Source: Flavobacteriaceae bacterium UBA7302
GTDB taxonomy: Bacteria; Bacteroidota; Bacteroidia; Flavobacteriales; Flavobacteriaceae
Assembly: GCA_002471825.1 (NCBI GenBank)
Contig: DKQS01000011.1
Coordinates: 42,712 to 106,711, forward strand
Direction: 5' to 3'
DNA length: 64,000 bases
Shown: in pieces, positions 51,209 through 60,277 of the stretch
Layout of the letters: each line of letters opens with the position of its first letter
How positions within the stretch are numbered: position 1 is the stretch's first letter
Made by a program: the position numbers and the translations under genes
The notes under the pieces: generated by a model
Seen by the model: only the letters and a program-made list of their open reading frames with translations
Told to the model about the DNA's origin: nothing
Databases searched by the model: none

Positions 51209-51239
51209 CTTGCATATTTCACAAATTTCAATATATTTG
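51209..51239 (+). promoter_or_regulatory. Housekeeping-sigma promoter (CTTG-N19-TATATTTG) of the putative EPS operon
   Basis: Matches the Bacteroidota -33/-7 consensus and spacing. Confidence 0.6.
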
Positions 51240-51301
51240 TTATAATTGTAAAAAGAGATACTTATCCCCCACAATAAGGACATAGTAAAAAAGCAGACTG
51301 A

Positions 51302-52432
51302 ATGAGCTTTGTGGAGTGGTTTTTGACGTTCGTTTATAAGATAAAAACGTTCCCCCTAATTATACAAATAACCATTGTATTGACCCTCTTGTTTCTTATT
51401 GTAACCATCTGTACTTTAATCACCATTTACATCATCCGAAGAAAATACAATCGAGAGCAGCGCAAATTGCAAGAAAATGCTCCGAAAATTAGGGAGCTTT
51501 TTGAGGATGTTTTATTTACAGACAAAAATTACTCAGCTGAGGAAATTTTTAATAGATTTGAGGAAATAGTAGGCGAAGTTAACGAGGAAACGCTGGATTT
51601 CGGACTCGACGTTTTGGTAGAAATCAAAAACGATGGCGAGGAAGAATCCGATAAGTATGATCAAATCATCGATGCACTTGGATTGATTGAACACTTGGAA
51701 GAAAAATTCGGTTCGAGATCCAATAGCAAAATTATTGATGCGTTCCAGCAAGCATTCGTATTGGAGTTAAGCAAGTTTGATGCACAGATTCTCCAATATG
51801 CCTACAGCAGAAATAAAAAACTAAGAAACGAAGCGCGGAACTCTTATCTTGCTCTGAGTGCCAATGACCCCTATCGATTTTTTAACGAAATTGAAGGGAC
51901 CTTGACAAAGTGGGATGAAATAGAGCTCATGCAATATTTAGAGCTTCAGAATGAAAGAGGAAATTTAGAAGGACTAGGTAAATGGATTAATTATTCGAAG
52001 AATAACTCTTTGGTAATTTTTCTGGTAAAAATGGTTGGTCACTTCAAACAACGAGGTATTGATGATATTTTGATTGAAAAATTAGAAGATGAAGATGCGC
52101 AGGTCAGAGCGGTATCCATTGATACTATTGGCCAGCTAAATTTAAATCAGGTAGAACAGACTTTGATAGAACGATACTATACAGAACCAGAAATTTGCCA
52201 GGTTGCCATTATTAGAACCATTGAAAAGTTTAATACTGGTAAGGCACTTGATTTCTTGAAGCAAGCTTTTGAAGAGTCTAACAATACGGATACCAAGAAA
52301 ATTATTGCAGAGGCAATTTTGAACTATAGTTATGAGGGCCGAATGGCATTTCAAAATCTAAAAAACACCCTAAACGGATTTGATTTAACCATTCTCCAAC
52401 ATGTTGAAACACCCCTAATTAAATACAAATAG
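51302..52432 (+). CDS. Membrane-anchored HEAT-repeat protein
   Basis: One N-terminal TM helix; HEAT-like repeats such as LEDEDAQVRAVSIDTIGQL. Confidence 0.8.
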   Translation: MSFVEWFLTFVYKIKTFPLIIQITIVLTLLFLIVTICTLITIYIIRRKYNREQRKLQENAPKIRELFEDVLFTDKNYSAEEIFNRFEEIVGEVNEETLDFGLDVLVEIKNDGEEESDKYDQIIDALGLIEHLEEKFGSRSNSKIIDAFQQAFVLELSKFDAQILQYAYSRNKKLRNEARNSYLALSANDPYRFFNEIEGTLTKWDEIELMQYLELQNERGNLEGLGKWINYSKNNSLVIFLVKMVGHFKQRGIDDILIEKLEDEDAQVRAVSIDTIGQLNLNQVEQTLIERYYTEPEICQVAIIRTIEKFNTGKALDFLKQAFEESNNTDTKKIIAEAILNYSYEGRMAFQNLKNTLNGFDLTILQHVETPLIKYK

Positions 52433-53971
52433 ATGTTAGAAATATTTACGGTAATTTATGAGTATTTCATATTCTTCTATGCAACTTCGTTGATTATAAG
52501 TTATATAGTTCTAGCCATCTTTTCCTTTCTTGCAATCAACCGATATAAAAATTACAACACTGATATTGATGACGAAGAATTACTGAAATCCGACCTTGCT
52601 CCAGGTATTTCGGTAATCGCTCCTGCCTATAACGAAGAAAAAACCATCATTGTAAATGTAAAATCTCTTTTAACACTCGAATACCCAATTTTTGAGGTAA
52701 TCATTGTAAACGATGGTAGTAAAGACAAAACTTTAGATCTATTGATCGAAGAATTTGAGTTGGTAGAGGTACCCTTCGCTTATGTGGAAAAGGTAAAAAC
52801 CAAACCTTACAAACGAACATTCAAATCTACCAATCCGAAGTACGACATCCTTACGGTTGTGGATAAAGAAAATGGTGGAACCAAGGCCGATGCCTTCAAC
52901 GCTGGTTTGAATGCATCCGTTTTCCCGTACTACCTAAACACAGATGTAGACTGTATTCTGGCTCGTAACACTTTGACCAAAATGATCAAGCCAATTTTGA
53001 GTTCGAAAGAAAGGGTGATTGCGGTTGGTGCTACCTTACGTATGTCGAACAACTGTGATATTGAGGAAGGACTGATTAAACGAGTTCGTCCACCAAAGGC
53101 ATTGATTCCGAGATTCCAAGAATTGGAATACATTCGATCGTACCTACTTGGTAAAATGGGTTGGGAATTGATCAATTCGGTTCCCAATGTATCGGGAGGC
53201 CTCGGAATGTTTGATAAGGAAATTGCGATTAAGGCCGGTGGATACGGTGCGGATTCTCACGCAGAAGACATGGATATGATGACGCGAATGTGTGTACACA
53301 TGATGAACAACCGTCTGAAATATCGGGTGGGTTACATACCACTTTCCTGTTGTTGGACCGAAGGACCGCCGAACTTACAGATATTAAACCGACAAAGAAC
53401 CCGATGGGCCAGTGGACTTTTCCAGATGTTCTATGACCATAGGGCGGTGTTGTTTAATCCGAAATACAAAAACTTGGGAATGGTAACATTCCCTTACGTG
53501 TTTATATATGAATTCCTTGCGCCGATCATTGAAGCATTCGGAATTTTGTTTACTATTTTCCTCTTTTTATTCGGATTGATCAACTGGACCTTTGCACCAT
53601 TGATCCTATTTTATTCTTACGCTTTCGCGGTAATGGTATCGTCTATCGTAATAATTTGGGATCAAATGACGTTTAAATATTACAAAACAACACAAGAAGT
53701 ATTAACACTTTTTGTCACAGCCTTGTTGGAGCCATTCATGTACCACCCCCTGATCATGTTCTTCTCGCTGAAAGGGTATTATTCCTACATTACTTCTCGA
53801 GAATTGGCATGGGGTACAATGACACGTCAAGGATTCGATAAGAAAGAAGGTGACAAGAAGAACGATAACAACAAACCAAACGATTCAGGTAAAAAAGAAA
53901 ATAGACCAAACATCTTTCAAAAAAACAAGAAAGATGAAAGTGGTGGGAAGTTTGAACCTATAAAAACCTAA
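52433..53971 (+). CDS. Processive GT2 polysaccharide synthase (PgaC/IcaA/YaiP-like)
   Basis: APAYNE, KADAFNAG, DVD (DxD), AEDMD and QRTRW motifs; flanking TM helices. Confidence 0.88.
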   Translation: MLEIFTVIYEYFIFFYATSLIISYIVLAIFSFLAINRYKNYNTDIDDEELLKSDLAPGISVIAPAYNEEKTIIVNVKSLLTLEYPIFEVIIVNDGSKDKTLDLLIEEFELVEVPFAYVEKVKTKPYKRTFKSTNPKYDILTVVDKENGGTKADAFNAGLNASVFPYYLNTDVDCILARNTLTKMIKPILSSKERVIAVGATLRMSNNCDIEEGLIKRVRPPKALIPRFQELEYIRSYLLGKMGWELINSVPNVSGGLGMFDKEIAIKAGGYGADSHAEDMDMMTRMCVHMMNNRLKYRVGYIPLSCCWTEGPPNLQILNRQRTRWASGLFQMFYDHRAVLFNPKYKNLGMVTFPYVFIYEFLAPIIEAFGILFTIFLFLFGLINWTFAPLILFYSYAFAVMVSSIVIIWDQMTFKYYKTTQEVLTLFVTALLEPFMYHPLIMFFSLKGYYSYITSRELAWGTMTRQGFDKKEGDKKNDNNKPNDSGKKENRPNIFQKNKKDESGGKFEPIKT

Positions 53972-53981
53972 ACTCCTAAAG

Positions 53982-56858
53982 ATGAAATTAAGTAACTACA
54001 TCCCAATTGTAATTGCAACAGTTTTCTTCGCCATAAACACCTATGGTCAGGAATACGAGTCTTCCGATGAATATTTTGATGACGCAAAGAGAAATGTTGA
54101 GCAACAAAATTTTTCCAATGCTGCCCGTTTGAGTTTAAAGGGTTTAAAACTTGCACCGAACGATTTGGATTTAAAAATTCTTTTAGGAAAATCATATTTG
54201 GAATTGGGCCGATATGATTCTAGTAGGTTTGTATTAAAACAAGTATATGAAAAGCGTAGAAAGGATATTACCGTACTCCGTTATCTCGTAAACGTGGAAC
54301 AAACCACCAAAAGGTATTCGGATGCCATTTGTTATGTAAACGAACTTCTAGAGATTACTCCTTATAGTCGTGGATGGTGGAGACGTAAAATCGCCATTTA
54401 CAAAGAAATGGGGAATTACGAAGAAGCCGAAAGAGCCCTAAAAAGAATTCAGCAGATCTATCCAGACGATAAAGAATTACAAGAGGAATACAATTACATC
54501 ATGATTGGTGATGGTACTGATGCCACCAAAAACAAAAAATACGACGAAGCCAATCAGATTTACAAAACAGTTATTGATTACAATCCCTCTAATAAGGAAG
54601 CCTACATGGGTATCATTAAAAATGAGATGCTCAAAGGGAATAAAGAGGAAGCCTTAATATTCACAAATAGGGCCTTACTCGAACTGCCTGAAGACAGAGG
54701 ATTGGTTGAAAAGAAGATCGGTTTGTTGGAAGACATGGGAAGGTACGACGAGGCCATCAATTATATTCAGACACTTCCTGCTGTTTTCGACGACATCAAG
54801 AAAAACACCATGCCGTATTTGATGCAGGAATCGGCTCGATACAATGAATACAACGACCCATATACGCTGAATAAGAAGTTGTATGACATGAACGGGAATT
54901 CGAACTCCTTGAATTATGTCATCAACAATGCGTTGGGAAAAGGTTATTACATTGATGCCGAGTTCCATATCAAGAAAGCTTTGAAAAGGAATCCGAATTC
55001 TAAGACCTTATTGGTTAAGGAAATGGAGTTGTATCGAGCAACCAAGGATACCGACAAGTTTGAGAAATCGGTTTTGAATCTTCATGAAAAATTCCCGAAT
55101 GATACCGATATCAAATATGCTTATGACGAATTGATGTACAACCGTGGGAAACGATACATCCAAGAAAAAAGATATTCAGAGGCCTTGACCATCTTCCAAG
55201 ATTTGACTTCTTCTCCTGATTTTACCAAAGGATCTGAACAACAAATCTTCAGTATTTTTCTTTTACAAAATCGCTTTGACGAAGCAACAGAACAAATTGA
55301 CAAGTTGATTCAATTAGATCCAAACAATGCGGATTACCTATTGAAAAAGTCAACGTTGTATCAAAAAATGGAGTTGTATGACGACGCCCTGGAAATTACA
55401 AGAAATCTAGAAACACAATATCCCTTAAACAGAAGATATCCAGTCATTTACGTTTCTCAAACTGAAGAATACGCGACCTACTTAATGCGCGAAGGTCTCT
55501 ATAGTAGGGTCTTACCGGTTGTAGAAGACGGACTTACCCGTGATGAAGACAACAAGTTATTGCTCAATCTTGCCATTAACGCTTCTTCTGCTATCCCGAA
55601 CTATCCAAAAGGAATCCAGTATGGACAGCAAGCCTTGCAATACTATCCGAACAATAAGAATTTCAAATTGAAATTATCAAACATGTATTCTTTGAACAAA
55701 GAATTTGATAATTCAGTTGCCATTTTAGATTCCCTAAAGCTGATTTATAAATACGATCGAAAGATCAAAAATGCATTGGGTGAAGTACTTTTCTACAAAG
55801 CAAAAGATCAAGAAGAACAAGGATTGATTGATGAAGCTTTGATCAACTATGATTCGGCCTATGCACTAAATGTAGAGGATAAAGGTGCCATGATGCGATT
55901 GATCAACCTTCACATCACCGAAAGACCTTATGAGGAATCATTAGATTTCATTAACGAGAAATTGAAAAGGACACCAAATGATAACTTCCTTCGTTATAAG
56001 AAAGGTGTTGTCTTTGAATTGTTGAAGCAATACGATTCGGCTTACTACTATCAAAAGTACCGGGAATTGGACAATCCGTATGAACAGCAACAATGGAATG
56101 TGTACCTAGAATCACTCGGTGCTACCCAATTAAAGAATGAACTTGCAGCCACCTACTTACGTGCTTCTTCAGATTCTGTGGCCTTTAGTACAGCCTTGGC
56201 GAGTATCAACTACCGACATTTTTATGACAAGGTAAATACTTTCGGACTAGACTTGAATTATGCGGCTCGTCGTAGTGGTGTTGCTTTTCAAATTGGACCT
56301 TATTATTCGCGCGTCTTCTCCCCTACGCTCTATGCCGATGTAGGTCTCTTATTCGGTGGACAATTCTTCCCATCTATTAAATTGTATGGAAATGCCTATA
56401 AGGCTTTCAAAAACGATTATGTGGGTAGCTTAGGAGTGAGTTGGGCCCGTGTGAATAACAATGCAAACAGTACCAATGAAATAAATTATTTTACCATTAC
56501 CGGTGGCGTCACGAAAACTTGGGATGATGTCTCAGCCAATGTGAAACTATCCATTATGCGGGATGATTTGTTCTTCTATAGCAACCTGATGGCCTCTGGA
56601 CGATTTACCCTGAACCCTCGGGGAGATTACCTCTCGCTGATATTATCGGGAGGATCGGCACCATTTGATCAACAGGTCCAATTCCAGCAAAATACCTTCT
56701 CCGAATTTATCAATACCATGATTGGAGCGGGATACAAGCATTTTATTTCACCGAAAACAGCAATTCTAATTGATGGTACCTGGTATAACTTTGCTACGAG
56801 ACAAAATATTTACACCAATCAGTACAACTTAGGACTAACCATTATAACTAAGTTTTAA
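53982..56858 (+). CDS. Multi-TPR protein with C-terminal outer-membrane beta-barrel (PgaA/YaiO-like export porin)
   Basis: Signal peptide, about 700 aa of TPRs, amphipathic beta-strands and a terminal Phe. Confidence 0.8.
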   Translation: MKLSNYIPIVIATVFFAINTYGQEYESSDEYFDDAKRNVEQQNFSNAARLSLKGLKLAPNDLDLKILLGKSYLELGRYDSSRFVLKQVYEKRRKDITVLRYLVNVEQTTKRYSDAICYVNELLEITPYSRGWWRRKIAIYKEMGNYEEAERALKRIQQIYPDDKELQEEYNYIMIGDGTDATKNKKYDEANQIYKTVIDYNPSNKEAYMGIIKNEMLKGNKEEALIFTNRALLELPEDRGLVEKKIGLLEDMGRYDEAINYIQTLPAVFDDIKKNTMPYLMQESARYNEYNDPYTLNKKLYDMNGNSNSLNYVINNALGKGYYIDAEFHIKKALKRNPNSKTLLVKEMELYRATKDTDKFEKSVLNLHEKFPNDTDIKYAYDELMYNRGKRYIQEKRYSEALTIFQDLTSSPDFTKGSEQQIFSIFLLQNRFDEATEQIDKLIQLDPNNADYLLKKSTLYQKMELYDDALEITRNLETQYPLNRRYPVIYVSQTEEYATYLMREGLYSRVLPVVEDGLTRDEDNKLLLNLAINASSAIPNYPKGIQYGQQALQYYPNNKNFKLKLSNMYSLNKEFDNSVAILDSLKLIYKYDRKIKNALGEVLFYKAKDQEEQGLIDEALINYDSAYALNVEDKGAMMRLINLHITERPYEESLDFINEKLKRTPNDNFLRYKKGVVFELLKQYDSAYYYQKYRELDNPYEQQQWNVYLESLGATQLKNELAATYLRASSDSVAFSTALASINYRHFYDKVNTFGLDLNYAARRSGVAFQIGPYYSRVFSPTLYADVGLLFGGQFFPSIKLYGNAYKAFKNDYVGSLGVSWARVNNNANSTNEINYFTITGGVTKTWDDVSANVKLSIMRDDLFFYSNLMASGRFTLNPRGDYLSLILSGGSAPFDQQVQFQQNTFSEFINTMIGAGYKHFISPKTAILIDGTWYNFATRQNIYTNQYNLGLTIITKF

Positions 56859-56875
56859 AGTAAGTTAATTCCGAT

Positions 56876-59053
56876 TTGATGGGGAAAAAGTTCCTGGTTT
56901 TATGTCTTTTAGTGGGTTGTTCATTTTCATGTGCACAGCAAAAAGTGAGTTTTTATTCCTTGAAATACAAGATTTTCCCAAAAATCAATATTCCTTCGAA
57001 CTCCGATGTTTATATGCAAAAGGCAGCATTGGAATTTCAGAAAAACTTTGAAATACTCACCAAAACCAAATTAACTATTGAAGAAAGAACAAGGTTTGAC
57101 AAAACCGAAAATGTTCTGGTCTTACGAGTAAATCCAACACAATCGAGCGACTTTTGCATCAAAAAAAACAAGTTGAATACCACCATAGTAGCGAGTTCTG
57201 TTGAAAACCTACACTTCGGAATTAACGAGTTCTTTATCAAGTATACATCCCTTAATTTCAAGCAAAAAAGCAAGCAAGTTGGCAATCCTCAGTTGACTTA
57301 TGATATTGACTTGAATTCAGAAATCAATGAATGTTATAAGGCCGATTTTTCCTATCGTGAACCTTATTATTCGCGGAATTTCAACTCAGACTACTCAAGA
57401 TGGCATAAAACCAATTATTTAGACCTTAACTGGGGGATTTGGGGACACAATATCCCGAAGATTCTAAAAAAATACCAATTACCAGAATCCGCCTATGCCG
57501 AAGTGAATGGCCGACGCAACAAACAACAATTTTGTTTCTCCAGCAATGATTTGTTTAAATACTTGAGTACGGAAATTATCAAGATTTACGAAAGCGACAA
57601 TGCATTGGATCGCTTTATGATATTACCAAACGACAATTTCTTATCATGTACCTGCGATAAATGTAAAAAATTGGGCAACACCCCAACAAACGCATCTCCT
57701 GCTGTTTTTACCTTCTTAAACAAATTAGCCCGAAAATATAAAAAGCTGCACTTCTTTACTTCAGCTTACAATACGGTAACCGAAGTCCCTGATTTTAAGG
57801 CCGAAAAAAATATTGGTTTGTTTTACAGTACAATCAAAATTCAGAAAGGAATTCCCATTGAAAAATCAAGGTACTATAACCGATTTAAGAAAGATATTAC
57901 AAATTGGAAAGACCACGTAGATGATGTCTACATTTGGGATTACACCGTAAATTTTGACAACTACTTTGATTTATATCCGTCTCTGAAAGTTACCCAAGAC
58001 AATCTGAAACTTTACAAAAAACTGGGGGTTCATGGTGTTTTCTTACACGGTAGTGAATACAACTACTCTACCCTAGAAGATTTAAAGACATATGTCTTCG
58101 CCAGAATGTTATGGGATACGGATATTGATTTAAAAGAAGAAATCACCTCATTTTTAAATGACAACTATTCTAAGAAGGTAGCAAAGCTACTGAGTGAGTT
58201 CTACATTTATCTAACTGATTCTTTTTACAACAGTAAAAAAGAACTTAGTATTTATAGTGGCATCCATCAAACCGCGGCAAAATACCTAGATCCTGAGCTA
58301 TTATTCACCTTCTATGAGGATTTCGACAAGTATGTTCAGAGCAATCAATACAATCAAAATTATTTACAGATTGCCACGGCATTGACCTTTTTGAAACTTG
58401 AAATCATGAGGGATTATGGTTTTGGAAAATATGGTTATGCACGATTGTTTAACAATGAGATTCGAGTAAAAAGTGAAATCGGAACGTTATTGGACAAATT
58501 GGACTCCTACAGCAGATTGGCCAAAATAAGTACCTATAATGAGATCCAATCGAGTTTGCGAAAGTATATCATTGGTTGGCGTGAGACCATTTTCAGATAC
58601 CATAGACGAAACAGTTACTTCTTTAAGAAAAAGTTCGAAGTGCTTTCGAGTTTGGATGAAGACTACACCAATACATCTTATTTGAATGATGGGGCTTTTG
58701 GATTGCTGGATTACAATACCAACTGGTTACTTTGCTCGGTAGATGATTTGGTATTAAAAGTAAAAAAAGAAGACGTTAAGAATTCGAAAGAGATTACCTT
58801 TTCGTTTTTACAGGACACCAAACATCGTATTTATTTCCCAGAAGTTATTCGCATTAAGGACACTGAGAACAATACGATTAAAAGATTCCGATTGCCAGTT
58901 GAAAAGGATAAATGGTTGAAAAAGGAATTTGTATTGAGGCTTCCTACGGAATATGAAGACGAACAATTAAGTGATGAATTCATCATTAGCATTGAGAAAA
59001 AGCGCGGTATCGGTAAAAACACCCTTGCCGTTGATGAAATCATTTTTAATTAA
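56876..59053 (+). CDS. DUF4838-like putative glycoside hydrolase, probable lipoprotein
   Basis: GH20/67-type N-domain, then FSYR, PND...CTCDKC, AY, IWDYTVNF and ARMLWD motifs. Confidence 0.7.
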   Translation: MMGKKFLVLCLLVGCSFSCAQQKVSFYSLKYKIFPKINIPSNSDVYMQKAALEFQKNFEILTKTKLTIEERTRFDKTENVLVLRVNPTQSSDFCIKKNKLNTTIVASSVENLHFGINEFFIKYTSLNFKQKSKQVGNPQLTYDIDLNSEINECYKADFSYREPYYSRNFNSDYSRWHKTNYLDLNWGIWGHNIPKILKKYQLPESAYAEVNGRRNKQQFCFSSNDLFKYLSTEIIKIYESDNALDRFMILPNDNFLSCTCDKCKKLGNTPTNASPAVFTFLNKLARKYKKLHFFTSAYNTVTEVPDFKAEKNIGLFYSTIKIQKGIPIEKSRYYNRFKKDITNWKDHVDDVYIWDYTVNFDNYFDLYPSLKVTQDNLKLYKKLGVHGVFLHGSEYNYSTLEDLKTYVFARMLWDTDIDLKEEITSFLNDNYSKKVAKLLSEFYIYLTDSFYNSKKELSIYSGIHQTAAKYLDPELLFTFYEDFDKYVQSNQYNQNYLQIATALTFLKLEIMRDYGFGKYGYARLFNNEIRVKSEIGTLLDKLDSYSRLAKISTYNEIQSSLRKYIIGWRETIFRYHRRNSYFFKKKFEVLSSLDEDYTNTSYLNDGAFGLLDYNTNWLLCSVDDLVLKVKKEDVKNSKEITFSFLQDTKHRIYFPEVIRIKDTENNTIKRFRLPVEKDKWLKKEFVLRLPTEYEDEQLSDEFIISIEKKRGIGKNTLAVDEIIFN

Positions 59054-59071
59054 AAAATTAATACCTTTATA

Positions 59072-59599
59072 ATGATGAAAAAAGGATTTCTACTTGTTGT
59101 TTTTTTGGTCTTATTAAGTTCCTGCGAACTTAGAAAGCCAAATATTGAAAATGTGGAAAGGACAAAAATTGAATTTTTGGATCCTGATCGTCATTACTAT
59201 CCAATTTTAAGAGGATCCGAATTAACGGCTTCTTATAAGTTTTGGAATCGTGGAAATGCACCCTTAATTATTTATGAGGTACAAGCTTCCTGTGGATGTT
59301 TGGACATTGATTATCCGAGAGGTTCTATCGGTAAGGATGATTTCGGATTTATCACGGTTGATTATGATAGTGCCAAGAATATTGGTTTTGTCGAGTTTTA
59401 CATTACCATAGTTGCGAATACCGAAAATGATATTTTCAATACCATTAAATTCGATGTGAATGTGGTTACTTCACCACACTATACTCAGGATTACGAAGAA
59501 ATTTACTTAAGACGAAGAAAAGAAAAACTTGGAGGCGAAGTTGATGGGGATTTAACACAACAGGGATACTACATCGACTTTGATAAGACCATTCGATAA
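59072..59599 (+). CDS. DUF1573 lipoprotein
   Basis: Lipobox LSSC; NRGNAPLII.EV.ASCGC motif. Confidence 0.85.
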   Translation: MMKKGFLLVVFLVLLSSCELRKPNIENVERTKIEFLDPDRHYYPILRGSELTASYKFWNRGNAPLIIYEVQASCGCLDIDYPRGSIGKDDFGFITVDYDSAKNIGFVEFYITIVANTENDIFNTIKFDVNVVTSPHYTQDYEEIYLRRRKEKLGGEVDGDLTQQGYYIDFDKTIR

Positions 59600-59621: not shown

Positions 59622-59653
59622 AACCAAAGCAAATTTTTAGCTTTGGTTTTTTT
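59622..59653 (+). terminator. Intrinsic terminator closing the 51302-59599 operon
   Basis: AACCAAAGC-aaattttta-GCTTTGGTT followed by T's. Confidence 0.8.
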
Positions 59654-59677
59654 ATTGCCAAGCACTAACATCCAGAC

Positions 59678-60277
59678 GTGATACACTTCAATTCCAAATT
59701 CTTTTTAGAACTCGCAAAAGCCATTGGTAAGCTCATTATTGCTGGTGTCTTTATTGGACTCCTGAAAGAGTATGACTTCATCATTGCCATCTTATTGCTC
59801 CTAAAAATTGCTTACAATCTTTATCGGAATTTTGTCACTCGTAAAGAGAAAAACTGGCTTTTGATCGTAGGAATGATTCTAACCGGAATTGGCGGAATCA
59901 TAGGCGAAATTTGGGGCGTAACCAATGGATTCTGGGAATATCATGAAATTTCAGGCAAATTACCCTATTGGCTTCCCTTCGCTTGGATGTTGGCTTTTGA
60001 TTACCTCTATAAGGTTGAAAAAGCCTTGATTCCTTTTTTGGTGAATCCCACCCATCGAAACAAAATCGTTCTAGCCATTATATTGGCCTTAATTTTACCA
60101 GCCTTAGGCGAAATGGTTACGATATATTTGGGAGTGTGGACCTATTACTGGCCTTATCAATTATTGGGTGTACCCTTGTATGCATTTATCTGTCTGGTAT
60201 TTGTACACATGCTCGTTTACAGCATCATGAATGCCATCTGTAGAAAATACAAGATTAAGGATCCTGTTTTTACCTAA
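59678..60277 (+). CDS. Hypothetical multi-TM protein with internal duplication
   Basis: Repeats GEIWGVTNGFWEY and GEMVTIYLGVWTY. Confidence 0.65.
   Translation: MIHFNSKFFLELAKAIGKLIIAGVFIGLLKEYDFIIAILLLLKIAYNLYRNFVTRKEKNWLLIVGMILTGIGGIIGEIWGVTNGFWEYHEISGKLPYWLPFAWMLAFDYLYKVEKALIPFLVNPTHRNKIVLAIILALILPALGEMVTIYLGVWTYYWPYQLLGVPLYAFICLVFVHMLVYSIMNAICRKYKIKDPVFT

Follow-up and report, generated by a model that had tools for sequence, protein, structure and literature searches.

The question raised by this stretch of DNA, a 64,000-nucleotide (nt) window on contig DKQS01000011.1 of Flavobacteriaceae bacterium UBA7302, is what five closely packed genes on its forward strand (positions 51302-59599) make together, and whether they belong to one of the known pathways for bacterial surface polysaccharides. 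The genes encode, in order, a protein of 376 amino acids (aa) with a transmembrane (TM) segment and HEAT repeats (gene A, 51302-52432), a 512-aa processive glycosyltransferase of family GT2 (gene B, 52433-53971), a 958-aa protein joining tetratricopeptide repeats (TPRs) to a YaiO-type barrel (gene C, 53982-56858), a 725-aa DUF4838 lipoprotein with a TTG start (gene D, 56876-59053), and a 175-aa DUF1573 lipoprotein (gene E, 59072-59599); the gaps at the A/B, B/C, C/D and D/E junctions are 0, 10, 17 and 18 nt. These five open reading frames (ORFs), their spacing and their domain assignments had been proposed in a sequence-only reading of the window, and all were reproduced here from the ORF positions and from Pfam and NCBIfam scans. 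The gene cluster is real, widespread, transcribed and uncharacterised: no study of it was found in the literature searched (open-access papers and bioRxiv), and the database names of homologues of its proteins are generic. We consider it likely that the cluster is a Bacteroidota-specific system for the synthase-dependent synthesis and export of a polysaccharide.

The conservation of the unit was surveyed by a GT2 alignment scan covering one genome per GTDB species, and the best 80 of at least 419 confirmed relatives were analysed, the 80 loci being compared by tblastn, by blastp on ORFs and by neighbour clustering. The five-gene order recurs in about 35-40 genomes belonging to Flavobacteriales, Sphingobacteriales, Chitinophagales and Bacteroidales, so that the co-occurrence across genomes on which the sequence-only reading had made its proposal depend takes the form of collinearity over four orders. 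In the window the operon is flanked upstream by namZ, argS and lpdA and downstream by a gene for a 199-aa membrane protein and then by bshC on the opposite strand. Of these neighbours, lpdA, bshC and the membrane protein are common to Polaribacter loci only; the five-gene order is thus kept while the flanks differ, which argues for a module and not a chance neighbourhood. Loci whose GT2 is at least 47% identical to that of the window (clade 1, about 42 loci among the best 80) nearly always show the order HEAT, GT2, TPR/barrel, DUF4838 and DUF1573, with short or overlapping junctions. Their Flavobacteriales members include Polaribacter, Flavobacterium, Wenyingzhuangia, Myroides, Chryseobacterium, Weeksellaceae and Brumimicrobium, and the clade extends to Pedobacter, Sphingobacterium, Chitinophaga(ceae), Prevotellaceae, Paraprevotella, Alistipes and other Bacteroidales. 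Over all 80 loci, the HEAT family lies directly upstream of the GT2 gene in 77 and the TPR/YaiO barrel family is present in 69, DUF4838 is found in 37 (35 of them in clade 1) and DUF1573 in 34, all in clade 1 and none in clade 2, the more distant group described below. A receiver gene of about 126 aa stands just upstream of the HEAT gene in 44 loci (nine in clade 1, 35 in clade 2), and any other neighbour family occurs in at most eight of the 80. One complete clade-1 cluster lies on a contig labelled uncultured Oscillospiraceae, a family of the Firmicutes (L031); mis-binning of a Bacteroidales contig is the probable cause, and horizontal transfer a less likely one.

Gene B encodes the predicted synthase, with an N-terminal TM segment, a GT-A domain placed in the cytoplasm, a C-terminal TM bundle, a WGTxTR motif at residues 460-465 and a Lys/Asn-rich tail. 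The full processive set that had been claimed for it (DxD, ED and QxxRW) can be read in the sequence, with TM segments on either side of the GT domain, and the corresponding residues D94, D171-x-D173, E278-D279 and Q321-R-T-R324-W325 are kept in at least 95% of 80 homologues. The C-terminal motif W460-G-T-x-T-R465 is also conserved, W460 and R465 being kept in the 80 homologues; the corresponding place in BcsA is taken by the FxVTxK gating loop, and the motif of chitin and hyaluronan synthases is (S)WGT(R/K). B matches the Pfam GT2 families and Chitin_synth_2, and its top NCBIfam match is PgaC_IcaA (TIGR03937), at 114.6 bits against a cut-off of 422.3. Among the synthases of E. coli the nearest is PgaC (24.5% identity over 371 aa, E 5e-24), followed by YaiP (E 1e-6) and NfrB (E 0.1), and a sequence search of the PDB with B returned only short matches to the N-terminal part of GT2 proteins. 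The nearest named homologues of B, C and D come from Polaribacter; C and D each have database entries that are 100% identical, the one for D belonging to a marine Flavobacteriaceae metagenome-assembled genome (MAG).

Directly after the synthase, gene C encodes a signal peptide, about 19 TPR-like helix pairs (residues 28-714), 14 β-strands (719-957) and a terminal Phe, F958, that is kept in at least 95% of 39 orthologues. The sequence-only reading had taken the C-terminus for a membrane barrel, and three lines of evidence now identify it as a β-barrel of the YaiO family. First, C passes the YaiO cut-offs of both curated hidden Markov models (HMMs), at 30.2 against 23.9 bits for PF19413 and 37.8 against 32 for TIGR04390, besides matching many TPR families. 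Second, its AlphaFold model (predicted local distance difference test, pLDDT, 85) consists of a signal helix, about 38 helices and 14 long β-strands, many of which alternate hydrophobic and polar faces. Third, forms with few TPRs that occupy the position of gene C in other loci (L027 and L060) match YaiO at E 1e-30 to 1e-47. Orthologues of C are also named as YaiO family by NCBI and JGI. Foldseek with the whole model found only eukaryotic TPR/HAT superhelices, which are uninformative on the barrel, and a PDB sequence search with C found only designed TPR proteins. C belongs to the YaiO family as a divergent member, and we propose that it serves as both periplasmic scaffold and outer-membrane export pore.

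The third constant partner is the HEAT protein, whose gene ends -4 to +10 nt from the start of the GT2 gene in most loci. In gene A, one TM segment (about residues 19-45) precedes a stretch peculiar to the family (50-240), and residues 245-366 form HEAT repeats of PBS type (HEAT_2 scores 31.8 bits, the cut-off being 27.7). When 1.84 billion representative proteins were scanned in full with HMMER, 925 relatives were found at E<=1e-3, mostly of 360-410 aa. The single TM segment is followed by a basic stretch, RRKYNREQRK. Some longer relatives carry a signal or TM segment and a SPOR domain (P0498, P0502 and P0506) or a LysM domain (P0436) ahead of the TM segment. The basic stretch, together with the SPOR or LysM domains that these relatives have across the membrane, places the HEAT domain probably in the cytoplasm, beside the GT domain of B, and the peptidoglycan-binding domains themselves hint that the synthase complex is tied to the cell wall or division site. 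The constancy of this pairing supports the earlier suggestion that the HEAT protein is a co-factor or regulator of the synthase. PDB sequence searches with gene A and its profile matched only designed HEAT proteins. The absence of PilZ, GGDEF, PgaD and CE4 domains remarked on in the sequence-only reading held in domain scans and BLAST of A-E, as did that of MshEN, so that these five proteins contain no receptor domain for cyclic di-GMP (c-di-GMP) among those sought (PilZ, the PgaCD site, degenerate GGDEF and MshEN). The receiver gene found upstream in many relatives suggests control by phosphorylation instead of by c-di-GMP.

Gene D gives the module a putative enzymatic accessory. It had been set down as an atypical addition, a view that needs revising, as its DUF4838 is the domain of glycoside hydrolase (GH) families GH163 and GH185, its fold resembles GH20, GH84 and GH115, and His, Asp and Tyr residues in it are invariant. 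The protein begins with a lipoprotein-type signal (a lipobox is present in most orthologues), continues with a GH20b-like α/β domain, a TIM-barrel DUF4838 domain (residues 143-442) and a helical domain, and ends in a β-sandwich (618-724); orthologues of about 436-440 aa in four Prevotellaceae loci (L022, L032, L033 and L035) are without the helical and C-terminal β-sandwich domains. The match to PF16126 (E 2e-48, 165.5 bits against a cut-off of 26.6) covers profile positions 14-323 of 325, and the model, which is a confident one (pLDDT 86, predicted template modelling score 0.83), retrieves with Foldseek GH20 (BT0459, E 3e-17), GH115, GH138, GH67 and GH84; no match was found by PDB sequence searches with D and its profile. 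The DUF4838 family is highly diverse, and its domain is the catalytic one of GH163, where BT1035 is an endo-β-N-acetylglucosaminidase, and of GH185, where Sp_0475 is a 6-sulfo-β-N-acetylglucosaminidase (6-sulfo-β-GlcNAcase), both families being proposed to employ the acetamido group of the substrate (PMC10570127). The activity of Sp_0475 depends on Q174 (Glu in some relatives), H227, D309 and Y436 (PMC10570127). Across 32 orthologues of D (22-94% identity), H191, Q218, D253, Y298, D355-Y356 and Y363 are invariant or nearly so, and a candidate set of E162, H191, D253 and Y356 can be matched to that of Sp_0475, a mapping that we infer from the order of the residues and their places after barrel strands. 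D thus resembles the GH163 and GH185 enzymes in its domain, in its GH20/GH84-related TIM barrel and in the order of its His, Asp and Tyr residues, but those enzymes are catabolic, their substrates being host N-glycans and sulfated N-acetylglucosamine (GlcNAc), whereas D is a lipoprotein in a biosynthetic operon and has a cluster of cysteines, C258-x-C260-x-x-C263, invariant in the 32 orthologues, with C220 in 29 of them. The cysteine cluster lies near the candidate catalytic Asp253. From its domain and fold, D would therefore fill the slot usually held by a periplasmic hydrolase; a deacetylase is absent from the cluster.

Gene E, which matches PF07610 (DUF1573, immunoglobulin-like) at E 2.5e-17, has a lipobox cysteine, Cys18, kept in at least 95% of 35 orthologues and a motif S-C-G-C (C74 and C76) of which CGC is retained in 31-32 of the 35; a PDB sequence search with E gave no match. 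In selenoprotein members of DUF1573, the same motif reads UGC, its first Cys being selenocysteine (PMC9312934), which marks the motif of E as probably redox-active. E is thus possibly a redox-active periplasmic accessory and, as a matter of speculation, the cysteine cluster of D and the CGC motif of E may form a pair that handles redox chemistry or a metal.

How far does this set of genes fit a pathway already described? With synthase-dependent systems in general it shares a processive GT2 and a TPR scaffold with a modelled 14-strand barrel; D, an exported lipoprotein of glycosidase fold with conserved candidate catalytic residues, would be the counterpart of their periplasmic polymer-modifying enzyme. 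Among the systems like it is the Pga/Ica machinery for poly-N-acetylglucosamine (PgaABCD of E. coli, IcaADBC of Staphylococcus), to which belong the GT2 that is nearest to B in E. coli, an outer-membrane TPR and barrel exporter, a lipoprotein with a GH domain and a small membrane partner of the synthase; that partner, however, is here a 376-aa HEAT protein and not PgaD, the hydrolase is DUF4838 (GH163/185-like) where the domain of PgaB is GH153, and C scores 42 bits against a cut-off of 366.65 for PgaA (TIGR03939), through its TPRs only. BLAST of A-E against PgaA, PgaB and PgaD of E. coli gave no match, and a CE4 deacetylase and a c-di-GMP site were not found. The architecture of synthase, TPR/porin and periplasmic hydrolase is also that of Bcs and Pel, but homologues of BcsB, PilZ, PelD and PelC are lacking in A-E and the sequence families differ throughout. 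E. coli yaiO likewise lies near a GT2 gene, yaiP, and with a deacetylase gene, yaiS, but its product is a 257-aa barrel without TPRs, whereas C has about 19 TPR pairs. The NfrB-NfrA-YbcH system, the glycan receptor pathway of phage N4 in E. coli, combines a GT2, an outer-membrane TPR and barrel protein of about 960-990 aa and a periplasmic auxiliary protein in one operon (PMC8669469, PMC8669472), as the present cluster does. Yet B matches NfrB only at E 0.1, C, D and E match neither NfrA nor YbcH, and NfrB is a protein of 745 aa, with a long C-terminal region that is absent from the 512-aa B, and is annotated in its record as c-di-GMP-activated. Given these failed equivalog cut-offs and homology tests, the cluster is a member of neither Pga nor Nfr.

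That the five genes act as one transcription unit is suggested by their surroundings and by RNA. The sequence-only reading had placed a -33/-7 promoter ahead of gene A and a terminator behind gene E, and elements of both kinds are present. A predicted promoter of the Bacteroidota type lies at 51210-51239 on the + strand, its -33 TTG (51210-51212) and -7 box TATATTTG (51232-51239) standing 19 nt apart, and a TAnnTTTG box recurs in six of six Polaribacter loci, at -64 to -70 in five and at -105 in L005. A sigma-70-like pair, TTCACA-17 nt-TATAAT with TG (51218-51246, 11 of 12 positions matching), overlaps the -7 box and is probably a side effect of the promoter's A+T-richness. Between the -7 box and the start codon of gene A, a leader motif, TATCCCCCAC, occupies 51263-51272 on the + strand and is the sole exact match in the 64-kb window. 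In the form ATCCC(T/C)CA(C/G) the motif is kept in four of five orthologous Polaribacter loci, with a weaker version, ATCCATCTT, in L005, and in all these loci it lies 36-44 nt ahead of the start codon; an operator and an RNA element are both possible. A similar leader, ATCCCCCAT, precedes a clade-2 operon of P. vadi (L078). Past gene E, a hairpin resembling an intrinsic terminator (9-bp stem, 9-nt loop) and its U-run extend over 59622-59656 on the + strand, the hairpin itself (59622-59648) having a folding energy of -11.1 kcal/mol (z -2.5) and the U-run following directly. It escaped a generic terminator scan on account of its 9-nt loop. No convincing hairpin was found 3' of gene E in three other Polaribacter loci examined, and the terminator is therefore supported only in this genome and its 98% relative. 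Contigs from three marine metatranscriptomes cover all five genes and span the A/B, B/C, C/D and D/E junctions, and in two of the three their depth is zero past about 59775, a pattern that fits one transcript produced in situ. The 199-aa protein encoded at 59678-60277, which starts 79 nt past gene E and has about six TM segments and no Pfam or NCBIfam match, was considered as a sixth member of the operon and rejected, being conserved in Polaribacter only and at a variable distance. Genes A-E match no anti-phage defence model of PADLOC.

Put together as a machine, the cluster would work as follows. B would polymerise a nucleotide sugar in the cytoplasm and thread the chain across the inner membrane, while A, held beside it by its one TM segment, would act from the cytoplasmic face as an obligatory partner or regulator of the synthase, taking the place of the PgaD, PilZ or MshEN modules of Proteobacteria. 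C would bridge the periplasm with its roughly 19 TPR pairs and let the polymer out through its 14-stranded YaiO-type barrel. D would trim or release the polymer in the periplasm, a role played elsewhere by BcsZ, the C-terminal domain of PgaB, PelA and PslG, and E might assist D or C, possibly by redox chemistry. As for the product, a β-linked polymer of N-acetylhexosamine (HexNAc) is our tentative candidate, put forward because B resembles PgaC and chitin synthases and because the characterised DUF4838 families cleave β-GlcNAc bonds; with no deacetylase in the cluster, such a polymer would probably stay acetylated.

A number of observations weigh against this reading, in whole or in part. A polymer, its composition and its export are predictions here from genes and models, and the RNA contigs are unstranded, may include DNA carry-over and in some cases reach into the promoter region. 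When the profile of the barrel was compared by hhalign with the single sequences of E. coli YaiO, NfrA and PgaA, the E values were 0.015, 0.36 and 0.038, none of them significant; support for the barrel call therefore comes from the two curated HMMs, the model and the intermediates. A receiver domain was sought in the 64-kb window and none was found, which leaves regulation here without that candidate. The remaining points concern the sugar: B falls far below the PgaC equivalog cut-off (114.6 against 422), so that its substrate is a prediction; the candidate residues of D match the Sp_0475 set by order and post-strand position only; E162 is present in 23 of the 32 orthologues and replaced by Gly, Asp or Ser in eight; and the DUF4838 family is diverse, with the fold of D matching the α-glucuronidases GH115 and GH67. 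An alternative would keep the machinery and change its product to a β-glucan or a uronic-acid-containing or mixed polymer, with a D of different specificity, and it draws on these same facts, namely the distant relationship of B to PgaC, the variable E162, the diversity of DUF4838 (PMC10570127) and fold matches that include GH138 besides the other uronidases. We regard it as unlikely, since the top family and pairwise matches of B are all GlcNAc polymerases (PgaC/IcaA, Chitin_synth_2 and NodC), both characterised DUF4838 families act on β-GlcNAc (PMC10570127), and genes for uronic-acid or other precursors were not found in the cluster.

A second alternative concerns which genes belong to the machine, and it turns on the more distant relatives. 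Loci whose GT2 is 40-46% identical to gene B (clade 2) typically encode a receiver, the HEAT protein, the GT2, a sulfatase-family protein and a short TPR/YaiO barrel, so that DUF4838 and DUF1573 are swapped for a sulfatase-family enzyme. Examples are found in Polaribacter glomeratus (L071:8501-15170) and Algoriphagus locisalis (L065:8059-13882), where an 811-aa sulfatase-family and TPR protein accompanies a short TPR and YaiO barrel protein (E 1e-51 to 1e-61); P. glomeratus, P. vadi and P. ponticola contain both clades. Bcs operons have the phosphoethanolamine transferase BcsG in the matching gene position and, by analogy with it, the clade-2 enzyme may add a phospho-substituent. In a Daejeonella MAG (L056:9995-13483), a clade-2 GT2 is fused with a sulfatase-family domain in one ORF of 1162 aa, with a DUF4838 gene upstream, and the fusion argues that the two domains act on the same polymer. 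The clade-1 locus of Chitinophaga eiseniae (L013:8436-15655) has a receiver upstream, neither DUF4838 nor DUF1573, and a GH130 family gene downstream on the opposite strand. The core is thus the HEAT protein, the GT2 and the TPR/YaiO barrel, with exchangeable periplasmic accessories. That this core occurs in the paralogous clade 2 and in L013 with neither D nor E, together with the catabolic nature of the characterised DUF4838 enzymes, could also mean that D and E stand outside the export machine, as lipoproteins for nutrient scavenging or for remodelling envelope glycans that happen to lie downstream of it. This appears improbable, however, as, of about 40 clade-1 loci spread over four orders, 35 have D after C and 34 have E after D, the gaps between C, D and E are short or overlapping, there are no SusC/SusD genes at the loci, the RNA contigs run across the C/D and D/E junctions, and dedicated hydrolases are regular members of the synthase-dependent systems Bcs, Pga, Pel and Psl. 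Very improbable, finally, is a periplasmic or lipid-linked glycan kept inside the outer membrane, with C as a scaffold whose barrel is structural and not a pore, for although 14 strands make a barrel smaller than the 16-18 strands of PgaA, BcsC and AlgE, a TPR-barrel fusion beside a processive GT2 is what marks out export systems (PgaA, BcsC, PelB and NfrA), and this pairing is kept in 69 of the 80 loci.

The preferred reading, a Bacteroidota-specific synthase and exporter with D and E as its periplasmic accessories, can be carried one step further. In the general view, Bacteroidota make little use of c-di-GMP signalling, and it is conceivable, if rather doubtful, that a membrane-anchored HEAT subunit, fed by a receiver in many lineages, runs one family of processive synthases in this phylum, a two-component-type switch thus replacing the c-di-GMP switch of the proteobacterial Pga, Bcs, Pel, Alg and Nfr systems, and that in clade 1 a fully acetylated β-HexNAc chain is processed by D and E as a new periplasmic pair. 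A role of the cluster in biofilm formation, gliding or phage reception, as had been suggested in the sequence-only reading, is speculation.

Synthase-dependent exopolysaccharide systems are central to biofilm biology and have been worked out almost wholly in Proteobacteria and Firmicutes. The cluster described here is likely to be a conserved counterpart in the Bacteroidota, shared by marine Polaribacter, by Sphingobacterium, Pedobacter and Chitinophaga of soil, by Chryseobacterium, and by Prevotellaceae and Alistipes of the gut and rumen, and it gives a testable candidate for the source of an as yet unidentified surface or matrix polymer in bloom-associated and gut members of the phylum. It places DUF4838 glycosidases and DUF1573 for the first time in a biosynthetic setting, and its HEAT partner, with the receiver, would offer a route to synthase control that does without c-di-GMP. 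Should the polymer be similar to poly-N-acetylglucosamine or chitin, it would have consequences in these groups for particle attachment, aggregation and phage adsorption.

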